DNA of 64,000 bases, from NCBI GenBank assembly GCA_903907935.1, contig CAIVQA010000053.1, forward strand, positions 176 to 64,175, written 5' to 3'. The stretch's first letter is position 1. Every line of letters begins with the position of its first letter. This document shows, piece by piece, positions 36,001 to 39,000 of the stretch. Made by a program: the position numbers. This DNA is from an uncultured Francisellaceae bacterium (GTDB taxonomy: Bacteria; Pseudomonadota; Gammaproteobacteria; UBA6186; Azoamicaceae).

Positions 36001-39000
36001 TAACAAACGTATAGTAACTAAATTTCTAGATTTAATAATGCCTGTTCTTAAACTAGTTGGCCCATAAAATTTTTTAGTAGAATTTTGTGGGCGCCAATCA
36101 TCCATAAATAATGAACCTTCTTGAACAATAGGAGCATCGTTAATTATCGTTGCAGCAGTAAAGCCATTCTCTAAAGCAGCACCATAAATAAATGGTTTAA
36201 AATTAGATCCTGGTTGTCTTTCAGCTTGAATAGCCCGATTAAAAGCACTTTTTTTAAAATTAAAACCACCAACTAATGATAAAATTGCACCACTATCTGG
36301 GTGAATCGCAACTAATGCACCCTCTATCTCTGGTGCTCCAATTACTTCTGGTGTTTGAACAACATTAGATAATGATTCATTTGCTACTTCATTTTCCTCG
36401 TCTTCGTCGTTATTAATCGCAGTTTTTTCAGCTTTATGACGTTGATCATACTCCAATAAAGCTTTAGATAAAGCAACATTAGCTGCAACTTGCATATTGC
36501 TATCTATAGTAGTTATAACTTCATAACCTCTATCGTAAATTTCTTCTCCAAATCGATCGACTAATTCTTGCCTAACTACCTCAGCAATATAAGGCGCTTC
36601 TAATTCTATTGTTTTGCCATGATAAGTAGCTTCTATAGGTTCTCTATTAGCTTCTACATATTGTTGTTCATTGATATAGTGATGCGCTAACATATTATCT
36701 AGTACATGGGAACGTCGTTTTAAAGCAGCTTGTGGAGAATTAATTGGATTTTTTGCAGATGGAGCCTGCGGCAGTCCAGCTAGCATTGCCATTTGTGCCA
36801 AAGATAATTGATTTACTGGCACCCCATAATACACTTCTGCAGCAGCTGCTATCCCATAAGCATGTTTACCAAAATAAATTTTATTTAGATATAATCCTAA
36901 TATCTCATGTTTACTAAGTTCTTTTTCAATTTTAAGAGCTAATAAAATTTCATTAATTTTTCGTAAATAAGTTTTTTTTCGTGTTAAGAAAAAATTCCTA
37001 GCAACTTGCATAGTTATGGTACTACCACCCTGATCTTTAACCCCAGTTACAATTAAAGAAACTGTTGCACGTATTAATCCCCTAATATCAACGCCTGGAT
37101 GTTGGAAAAATCTATTATCTTCAATAGCAATAACTGCATTTATCAGGTCTTGTGGAATTTGTTCTAAAGATATAGGCGAGCATCTTTTATCCCCATATTC
37201 AGCCATTAGCTTGCGATCGTAAGAATAAATTCGCAATGGTACCTGTAATTTTACATCTTTTAAAACTGCGACTGTTGGTAGTTTAGAATCTAAATTAACA
37301 ATTATCCCTAATACCAAGAAAAACGCCATTAAAAATATGGTTGTTAAAATTTTATATTTAATTTTTATTTTCATCCTGGCCATAATAATTTTTTGGTAAT
37401 CACTTTATAAGCTAAATAACATAAACAATCCAATAAAAAATTATACCTAAGCTATTTACATATTGCTAGACCATTGGTTTTTGCGTAACATATAGCATAT
37501 AAATTTTGGAGATCAAACAATGTATGCAGTAATAGTGGCTGGTGGTAAACAATACCGTGTTCAAAAAAATAGCTATATTTTGGTAGAAAAACAAGATAAA
37601 GAACTTGGTAGTGTTATAGATTTTACCAATATATTATTAGCTTCAAATGGAGAAAAAGTATTTATCGGGGAACCGTATATTCCTAACTGTACTGTTAAGG
37701 CTACAGTAGAAGCCCATGGTAGGCATGATAAAATAAAGATCCTTAAGTTTAAACGTCGTAAACACCATATGAAACATATGGGACATAGACAATGGTTTAC
37801 TAAACTTAAGATTAACGAAATTAATTTGGGAGCTTAAATAAGATGGCACATAAGAAAGCTGGTGGTAGTACCAGAAATGGTAGAGATTCTAATCCAAAAT
37901 ATTTAGGTATTAAACGTTTTGGTGGACAACTAGTAAAAGCTGGAGAAATTATAGTTCGCCAACGTGGAACCAAATTTCACCCAGGAACTAATGTAGGGTT
38001 AGGTAAGGATTTTACTATATTTGCTAAAGTAGCTGGATTTGTAAAATTCATGAAAAAAAAGGTATCCATGGGTATTAATTGCACCAAAGTAAGAAAGTAC
38101 ATTAGTATCGTCCCCGCTACTACTTCCCACTAATGAGTTTTCGGTACTCTAAAAAACAAGGAGTGTTGTTTGAGCCTCTTTGACCTCTAGTTGCTCCTTA
38201 CTTTGCGAAAGGCGAGTTTCACGAAAAAATGTCAGGATAGACATTTTTGACGTGTGCAACACGCCCGAAGGGCGAGCGCCAGGATTGACGCGAGTCACTT
38301 GTTTTTTAGAGCACCGAAAACTCATTAGTGGGGAGTATGCATGAAATTTATTGATGAAGTAACCATACGAGTTCAAGCAGGTAAAGGTGGAGATGGTTGT
38401 TGTAGCTTCAGAAGAGAAAAGTTTATTCCATTTGGTGGCCCAGATGGTGGAAATGGTGGAAATGGCGGAAATATTTATCTACAAGCTACTTCTAGACTAC
38501 ACACTTTAGTAGATCTCAACTATAAAAAAAGTTACCAATCAGAAAAAGGTAAAGCTGGTGGTGGATGTTTATGTACCGGTAAATCTGGAGAACATTTAAT
38601 TATTGAAGTACCAATCGGTACAATTGTTAAAGAACAAGATACAGACGAAATAATTGGTGATTTAGTTAAAGATCAAGAATTATTGTTAGTTGCCAAAGGC
38701 GGTCAAGGAGGATTAGGTAACCATAATTTTAAAAGTAGTACCAATAGAGCTCCTCGTAAAATCATTAAAGGCACTCTAGGAGATGAACGTAATTTACATT
38801 TGGAACTTAGATTATTGGCAGATGTAGGATTATTAGGTTTTCCTAATGCTGGTAAATCTTCATTAATTAGCAAAGTATCTTCTGCAAAACCAAAAATTGC
38901 CGATTACCCATTCACTACTATGAACCCCAATCTTGGCGTAGTAAAAGTAGATCATTCTAGTTTTGTAATGGCAGATCTTCCTGGGTTGCTAGAAGGAGCA

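Follow-up and report, generated by a model that had tools for sequence, protein, structure and literature searches.

A 64,000-nucleotide (nt) stretch of DNA from an uncultured Francisellaceae bacterium (GenBank assembly GCA_903907935.1, contig CAIVQA010000053.1), referred to here as the window, carries a short repeat, designated module C, that is nested inside longer palindromic elements of two families, A and B, and of a subfamily of A, designated A'. The explanation that was judged to have slightly more than an even chance of being right is that module C is a discrete insertion unit that entered its hosts a few times, spread thereafter mainly as a passenger, and now looks fixed and inactive. 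An earlier note on this DNA had proposed that the module is nested in two unrelated families. This was confirmed: there are four copies in the window, and the composite elements recur in independent lake assemblies.

Copies of module C

The window (overall GC content 31.6%) was searched for module C with blastn, using short words, and with an unfiltered nhmmer profile. Four copies were found and none elsewhere in the window. With 38224-38298(+) as the reference, the blastn identities were 93% for 28514-28587(-), 94% for 35133-35187(-) and 85% for 17215-17285(+), and the profile match of the decayed copy in host A6 reached 35120, past the blastn end at 35133. No occurrence of a 45-mer of the module is expected in shuffled sequence. 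The four sites had been placed correctly before, but some of the ends were corrected, so that the copies are now:

38224-38296 (+): module C in host A7, from comparison of empty and filled sites
28516-28587 (-): module C in host A4, from comparison of empty and filled sites
35121-35187 (-): module C in host A6, truncated at its 3' end, from the profile search
17215-17287 (+): module C, B-type variant, in host B1, from comparison of empty and filled sites

The final two bases (AC) of the interval reported for the A7 copy, 38224-38298, belong to the host and not to the module. The sequence that had been quoted for the module is near the family consensus but differs from the A7 copy, whose actual 3' part (38280-38298) is CCAGGATTGACGCGAGTCAC. 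At 72-73 bp, non-coding and multicopy (13 copies were found), module C has the corresponding properties of a MITE (miniature inverted-repeat transposable element). Its base composition is uneven; the description of the module as GC-rich holds for the 3' 47 nt (66% GC), but the first 26 nt are just 27% GC. The window has seven GC-rich islands, of which copies of module C account for four.

A census of JGI metagenomes, in which an exact 21-mer from hairpin 1 served as the query, returned 10 true loci and one spurious locus. One of the true loci (L031) was the window's own A6 site, with 99.9% identity. The other nine were new sites, located in typical A elements (five), in A' elements (three: L029, L030 and L034) and in a third copy of B (L037), so that the total, window included, came to 13. 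All 13 copies lie inside A, A' or B, elements that account for only ~3% of the window. When a genome collection was scanned with the same 21-mer, only two chance matches were obtained (Alistipes and a gammaproteobacterial metagenome-assembled genome, MAG), the species not being among the representative genomes, and scans of viral collections with two patterns from the module gave chance matches at the seed level only. Contigs of the same species were obtained from freshwater-lake metagenomes in ENA (BUCK21-1 series) and JGI. They are short because of breaks in the assemblies at the repeats.

Host elements and the insertion site

Family A is palindromic and ~150 bp long, with inverted ends of ~45 bp (TATACT...ATGAGTTTTCGGTGCTCTAAAAAACAAG) and an asymmetric core. 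The A' subfamily has ends similar to those of A and a core that is only 54% identical. The nhmmer profile counted 10 copies of A and A' in the window, in addition to a solo end (48021-48061) and a fragment (28451-28471). Family B, with two copies in the window, is unrelated to A in sequence and has 33-bp inverted ends and an inner hairpin. As DNA, the host elements form long hairpins much more readily than shuffled sequence (z-scores of -5 to -13), and they have the features of MITEs, namely inverted ends of 33-45 bp, high copy number and empty orthologous sites in relatives. Their termini, TATACT...AGTATA, lie within (TA)n, where a TA duplication is indistinguishable from the inverted repeat; a 3-nt YGC repeat is possible at A7. 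Structural covariation was considered for the outer 17 bp of the A ends and rejected, since the ends come in two types, TATACTAATCGCACATGAG and TATACTCTCAGCTAATGAG, and an element may have one type on the left and the other on the right. The host elements of the window are:

38121-38337 (+): host A7, with module C, between rpmA (L27) and obg
28470-28695 (-): host A4, with module C, between recR and a divergent open reading frame (ORF)
35188-35293 (-): rest of host A6, the arm next to module C deleted
17121-17321 (+): host B1, with module C, flanked by a small ORF and the 3' end of rsd
30456-30583 (+): host B2, without module C, empty site TTTC^AAAATG
16731-16885 (+): family A without module C (nhmmer)
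22917-23071 (-): family A without module C (nhmmer)
33203-33357 (+): family A without module C (nhmmer)
41720-41873 (+): family A without module C, core closest to that of A7 with 3 differences (nhmmer)
47117-47273 (-): family A without module C, core closest to that of A4 with 3 differences (nhmmer)
60088-60242 (-): family A without module C, divergent, with mixed terminal types (nhmmer)
20859-21011 (+): A' without module C, the empty counterpart of the filled A' elements in L029, L030 and L034 (nhmmer)
48021-48061 (no strand assigned): solo family A terminus, a solo terminal hairpin adjoining the 3' end of a GspH-like gene

The ends of module C are exact. It starts with AAAAAATGTC and finishes with GCGAGWC, and the unit is written 5'-AAAAAATGTCAGGATAGACATTTTTG...GGCGCGAG(T/A)C-3'. 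Empty and filled sites compare as follows, with the insertion point marked ^ and the module in braces:

Host A: empty ...GTTTCACG^ACTTGTTTT...; filled ...GTTTCACG{AAAAAATGTC...GCGAGTC}ACTTG...
Host A': empty ...TTCAGCG^AATTATTT...; filled ...TTCAGCG(C){AAAAAATGTC...GAGTC}AATTATTT...
Host B: empty ...AATTTC^AAAATG...; filled ...AATTTC{AAAAAATGTC...GCGAGAC}AAAATG...

Both ends of the module agree within 1 base across A, A' and B. Copies without the module exist in every host family, and their junctions (CACG^ACTTG in A, AGCG(C)^AATTA in A' and TTTC^AAAATG in B) are clean, with neither scar nor duplication. Module C itself has no terminal inverted repeats, since AAAAAATGTC... at one end is not the inverted counterpart of ...GCGAGWC at the other, and it has no target-site duplication. 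The ambiguity of its placement is at most 1 nt (an A) in A and A' and up to 4 nt in the A-run of family B, where the empty B2 shows a single host AAAATG. As stated previously, the right arm of B1 is interrupted and B2 lacks the module; B2 is an empty site in all population contigs. The repeated AAAATG at B1, which had been entertained as a possible target duplication, is explained by this empty site: one AAAATG is that of the host and the other is part of the module, and family A hosts, which do not have it, still show the module's own AAAAAATG.

With the empty hosts folded as DNA, the long outer stem has the insertion position in its right arm, 1 base (an A) inside the inner end, and in folds of the composites module C forms side hairpins at the apex. 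The orientation of the module is constant relative to the asymmetric host core. The strongest single argument that module C was once a defined insertion unit, probably mobile and clearly inclined towards this structural position, is that its ends and its offset in the right arm are the same in unrelated hosts, a pattern that random recombination or deletion would not repeat. The identical boundaries and the presence of copies without the module in each host family require that a defined unit passed between families at least once. The four host bases on the 5' side of the module are able, in A and A', to pair with bases after hairpin 1, and one of these pairs is altered on both sides between A and A'; no such pairing is present in B.

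Fold of module C

Three hairpins had been ascribed to the module, but four were found in a structural model based on an alignment of 12 copies, and the same four were recovered independently by RNAalifold. One has an A+T-rich stem of 9 bp and three have G+C-rich stems, and the model includes a 2-bp closing helix. From the fold and alignment, the hairpins of the A7 copy are:

38225-38248 (+): hairpin 1
38251-38263 (+): hairpin 2
38264-38272 (+): hairpin 3
38276-38291 (+): hairpin 4

In the four-hairpin model, 97.4% of the cells were paired, as compared to 31-49% when the partners were slid by 1-3 columns, and its covariation score was matched by none of 500 shuffles. Changes on both sides were seen in five pairs, three of them in hairpin 2, which is CGTGT-GCA-ACACG in A, CGCAC-GCA-GTGCG in A' and CGCGC-TCA-GCGCG in the third copy of B. 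An A-T pair of the closing helix is swapped to T-A in B. The loops are mostly G-N-A triloops (GCA, GAA or GTA, GGA). DNA mini-hairpins with loops of the G-N-A type, such as d(GCGAAGC), are unusually stable in single-stranded DNA.

Lineages of module C, populations and relatives

The copies of module C are 93% identical to one another within A, 95% within A' and 99% within B, and 84-87% identical between families, which are roughly equidistant. Between A and A' the module is 85% identical, as compared to 54% for the adjoining cores and 81-85% for the inner parts of the inverted ends. Judged by these identities, the equidistant lineages of the module and the diverged cores fit a separate entry after the hosts had diverged. 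In typical A, copies with and without the module have common core haplotypes and no host substitution is diagnostic of its presence; the nearest, or tied nearest, core neighbour is a copy without the module for five of the eight A copies that carry it. This interleaving could reflect seamless excision and reinsertion, gene conversion among the numerous A copies, or homoplasy in the short core.

Four related lineages, with Obg proteins 73-79% identical to that of the window, were compared over ~170 kb of syntenic loci (10 loci, some of them near-duplicate contigs of one lineage). A, B and C were all absent from these loci, indicating that the whole system expanded in the lineage of the window. 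At the A7 locus of the relatives there is no element, and rpmA and obg overlap or, in one lineage, are 22 nt apart; the pilin and PBP genes likewise overlap or lie within 20 nt of each other. The best named relative by Obg is 'MAG: Gammaproteobacteria bacterium', with 78% identity; ~20 related sequences are 63-79% identical and all others ~55%.

Origin of module C

In the preferred explanation, about one entry of module C per host family, amounting to two or three insertions at structurally equivalent sites, would have been followed by multiplication mainly as a passenger of the amplifying composite hosts, in this one lineage. The single lineage of the module per host, the lack of free copies and the fixed states of the population point to ancient insertions, few in number, and to hitch-hiking as the source of most copies, which probably spread as passengers of host amplification. 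The suggestion in the earlier note that module C is, or was, independently mobile is partly supported, by the same ends in A, A' and B and by the copies that lack the module, as regards the past. No sign of present mobility was seen, and its way of moving is one that we infer.

Several observations weigh against this explanation, 1) no free-standing copy, and no copy outside A, A' or B, was found in the window or among the 13 copies that include the metagenome matches, 2) the variants of the module follow the host family strictly, with one lineage in each, whereas free movement would mix them, 3) there is no presence/absence polymorphism, A7, A4 and B1 being filled and B2 empty in all spanning population contigs, 4) the 5' flanks of the module (CACG, GCGC and TTTC; on the other strand AAGT, AATT and TTTT) are not conserved, whereas IS200/IS605 elements have a fixed target, 5) no genes of the HUH/Y1, RAYT or IS110 type are present among the scanned ORFs of the window, 6) the census comprises just 13 copies and depended on an exact match to a 21-mer, and 7) the comparison of host cores covers ~69 nt with few variable sites, so that homoplasy or gene conversion could interleave copies with and without the module. 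The confinement of module C to these hosts, together with a simple vertical descent of its copies from one ancestral fusion per family, had been named in advance as a ground for doubting its mobility. The outcome goes halfway towards that doubt: the confinement was observed among the 13 copies, the module falls into one lineage per host family, and all sites are fixed in the sampled population.

The first three of these observations also favour an alternative in which module C never moved by itself. It would then be a piece of repeat that was copied by illegitimate recombination or template switching at microhomology, and elements with and without it would represent separate subfamilies, multiplying along with the hosts as the long and short versions of Correia or QMITE2 do. 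The AAAATG at the 5' end of the module equals the AAAATG of the host junction in B, a possible microhomology, but in A the microhomology is just 1 nt. Random break-points, moreover, would not repeat both ends in A, A' and B, nor the offset in the right arm, and copies with and without the module have host haplotypes in common. This purely passive origin has a real chance of being correct, although one well short of even.

As to how an insertion unit of this kind could have moved, the lack of duplication and of inverted ends, the hairpins near both ends and the clean empty sites give module C a resemblance to single-strand transposition. With low confidence, an HUH/Y1-type enzyme that recognises hairpins in single-stranded DNA, as in the IS200/IS605 and REP systems, may have moved it in trans; this enzyme would have targeted, again with low confidence, the foot of the extruded host palindrome. 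A site-specific recombinase of the IS110/IS1111 type would be the alternative enzyme. The sole mobile-element-like gene of the window encodes a YhgA/Rpn-like PD-(D/E)XK protein ('Transposase_31', 6262-7239(-)), and no link between it and the repeats was found. A bolder version of this scheme, which is speculative and is offered as such, makes module C a trans-mobilised, single-stranded 'parasite of parasites' that picks its target by DNA shape rather than by sequence, settling on any long extruded palindrome at the foot of its right arm. It would insert and excise seamlessly and would depend on the host MITEs for most of its spread.

An explanation that is compatible with either origin is that module C was kept for its usefulness to the cell or to the host element, as REP-like hairpins that bind protein or stabilise RNA, or as a structured small RNA. 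The hairpins are maintained by compensatory changes, and between A and A' the module is far better conserved than the adjoining core. One-sided changes of pairs, on the strand as written, are more often G-T(U) than A-C (seven versus three), but the decayed, truncated copy contributes four of the seven G-T cells and the changes consequently do not discriminate between DNA and RNA as the constrained structure. In addition, no family in Rfam 15 reached the gathering score for module C, the matches of the composites being far below threshold, a scan for promoters and terminators gave no signal in or beside the module, and the gene context of the sites is inconstant, being convergent, divergent or within an operon. 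Matches to an outward TTTAGA-16-TATxxT in the family A ends were no commoner than chance. Selection for a function is, on this evidence, an unlikely reason for the persistence of the module.

It is very improbable that module C is ancestral to its hosts and that the copies without it arose by repeated precise deletion. The module is at a homologous site in A and A' and hairpin-rich DNA is prone to deletion, but the same deletion boundaries would be needed again in the unrelated B, which has no other sequence in common with A, and slippage is unlikely for a unit that is flanked in A by a direct repeat of only 1 nt.

Chimeric joining of repeats during short-read assembly can practically be dismissed, because the same composites, flanks included, were obtained again from many independent samples and assemblers, with 99-100% identity and from ENA as well as JGI data, even though contigs of the species do break at repeats and one ENA contig (L003) joins the A7 element to another downstream gene. 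On that contig, an A7-type element (715-925) follows rpmA and is itself followed by an MFS gene rather than obg, and its module is an A4-like variant; either the DNA was rearranged through the repeat or the assembly is chimeric.

Comparison with known repeats

The nesting of small bacterial repeats is already known, and module C is a well-documented new instance of it. The QMITE2 elements of Coxiella burnetii, the nearest counterpart among the published systems consulted, are palindromic, 150-190 bp long, occur in large and small versions and contain an internal GTAG REP that is the specific target of IS1111 (PMC5896051). By description, the composites resemble them in several respects, since both are small gammaproteobacterial palindromic elements of two sizes, with a G+C-rich palindromic module and a fixed internal target site, the inserting element makes no classical duplication, and QMITE2 copies are also fixed between strains. 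In Coxiella, however, the insert is a full IS1111 with its transposase, whereas module C is a 72-bp non-coding unit in three host families.

Composite, mutually inserted small repeats include the pneumococcal BOX, RUP and SPRITE elements, the bacterial interspersed mosaic elements (BIMEs) of E. coli, the NIMEs of Neisseria and the Correia elements (PMC3049150, PMC3184786). The A, B and C elements are similarly high-copy, intergenic and modular, and family A has in common with Correia a length of ~150 bp, long inverted ends and TATA-type termini. Correia elements have alternative terminal variants and a long/short dimorphism. Unlike the constituents of BIME and BOX, module C is neither a REP pair nor a tandem module, and its insertion point is constant to the base, in contrast to the scattered nestings in pneumococcus. 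The labels of nested MITE and of BIME-like mosaic that had been suggested for module C were accordingly both rejected, the former because it has neither terminal inverted repeats nor a target duplication, and the latter because it is a single unit, in one orientation within a MITE-like palindrome, without alternating REP pairs.

ERIC is an imperfect palindrome of 127 bp. Wilson and Sharp (2006) reportedly described longer ERIC copies with inserts of ~70 bp at specific internal sites; to our knowledge, none of these inserts has been reported as common to an unrelated repeat family.

Among elements that transpose as single strands, the miniatures of IS200/IS605 and the REP/RAYT system are like module C in having no inverted ends, no duplication and hairpins near the ends, and they excise seamlessly, which would account for the clean sites without the module. 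Unlike IS200/IS605, module C has no fixed 5' target of 4-5 nt and its end hairpins are dissimilar, and unlike REP it has no GTAG head, save by chance in the B variant (CCCGTAGGG). The only feature that it has in common with IS110/IS1111 is their habit of targeting palindromes or inverted ends (PMC5896051, PMC11187229). It differs from them in being 72 bp long and non-coding, with neither a DEDD transposase gene nor a guide-RNA region.

The palindromic elements of Rickettsia (RPE) are like the A, B and C elements in being ~100-150 bp and palindromic, densely distributed in an A+T-rich genome and, in some cases, overlapping gene ends. They differ in that the latter are intergenic and not in-frame within genes. 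An assignment to RPE was rejected, the organism being no Rickettsia by the gene content of the window (type IV pilin, GGDEF/EAL, RND) and by Obg, which is closest to gammaproteobacterial MAGs.

Gene ends beside the elements

Two gene ends in the window are formed by the repeats. The L27 protein has 96 residues, compared to 92 in relatives, and its last four codons and stop are supplied by the left end of A7 (38121-38133). The pilin gene (34608-35132) ends ...SCQNPTPP*, its final codons and stop coming from the truncated module C (35121-35132), while in relatives the end is ...SCQCYTSDCN*. At 28451-28471, an orphan, partial right end of A lies directly against the left end of A4, an arrangement suggestive of a deletion or of another A insertion. 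At the metagenome loci (L028-L038), the ORFs that flank the C elements appeared by eye, judged without a domain search, to be housekeeping-like, and none was transposase-like.

Other features of the window

The genes of the window include recA, an RND pump, a type IV pilin, GGDEF/EAL, htpG, recR, dnaX, rplU-rpmA-obg, ileS, ruvC, rho and sdhAB. There are no tRNA genes in the 64 kb, and the sole Rfam match at gathering score is a bacterial small signal recognition particle RNA at 32175-32269(-). The convergent GGDEF/EAL and htpG genes are separated by a G+C-rich hairpin at 25839-25884, CCCCCCCTCTCCCGCAGGGAGATGGATTGGGG, which has no relation to module C and is probably a terminator.

In the PBP1A gene (35290-35400(-)), a 1-nt gap relative to L004, a contig of the same species, shifts the frame of the last ~32 codons, so that the window reads ...QKDSIMKFLPKK... 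and L004 reads ...QKDSIYEIFTEETVPKEVAPSVSGDNASGEESIF*; this is a strain variant or an assembly error. The 5' end of an MFS transporter ORF (4958-6202) carries a perfect tandem duplication of 79 bp (4957-5114). As 79 is not a multiple of 3, the true start of the gene is probably downstream. Between A4 and B2 are two tandem paralogous ORFs of 261 and 263 residues (28750-29535 and 29575-30366), which have no Pfam match and whose DNA is 71-82% identical in blocks.

Two large effector-like genes are present at 52129-54570 and 54696-56675(-). One has a weak Anthrax_toxA-like stretch, and the other, with no Pfam match, has internal repeats of 84 nt (28 residues) at 55894-56385. By their sequence, these genes hint at a host-associated lifestyle.

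Significance

If structure guided module C to its sites, the module would offer a compact example from nature of shape-directed insertion without duplication. If the preferred explanation is true, small repeats would build mosaics through a few insertions, after which the inserts hitch-hike with the host element. The A, B and C elements fragment short-read assemblies, remodel gene ends and mark a recent burst of repeats in one lineage, which belongs to an uncultured, possibly host-associated, freshwater group of gammaproteobacteria.

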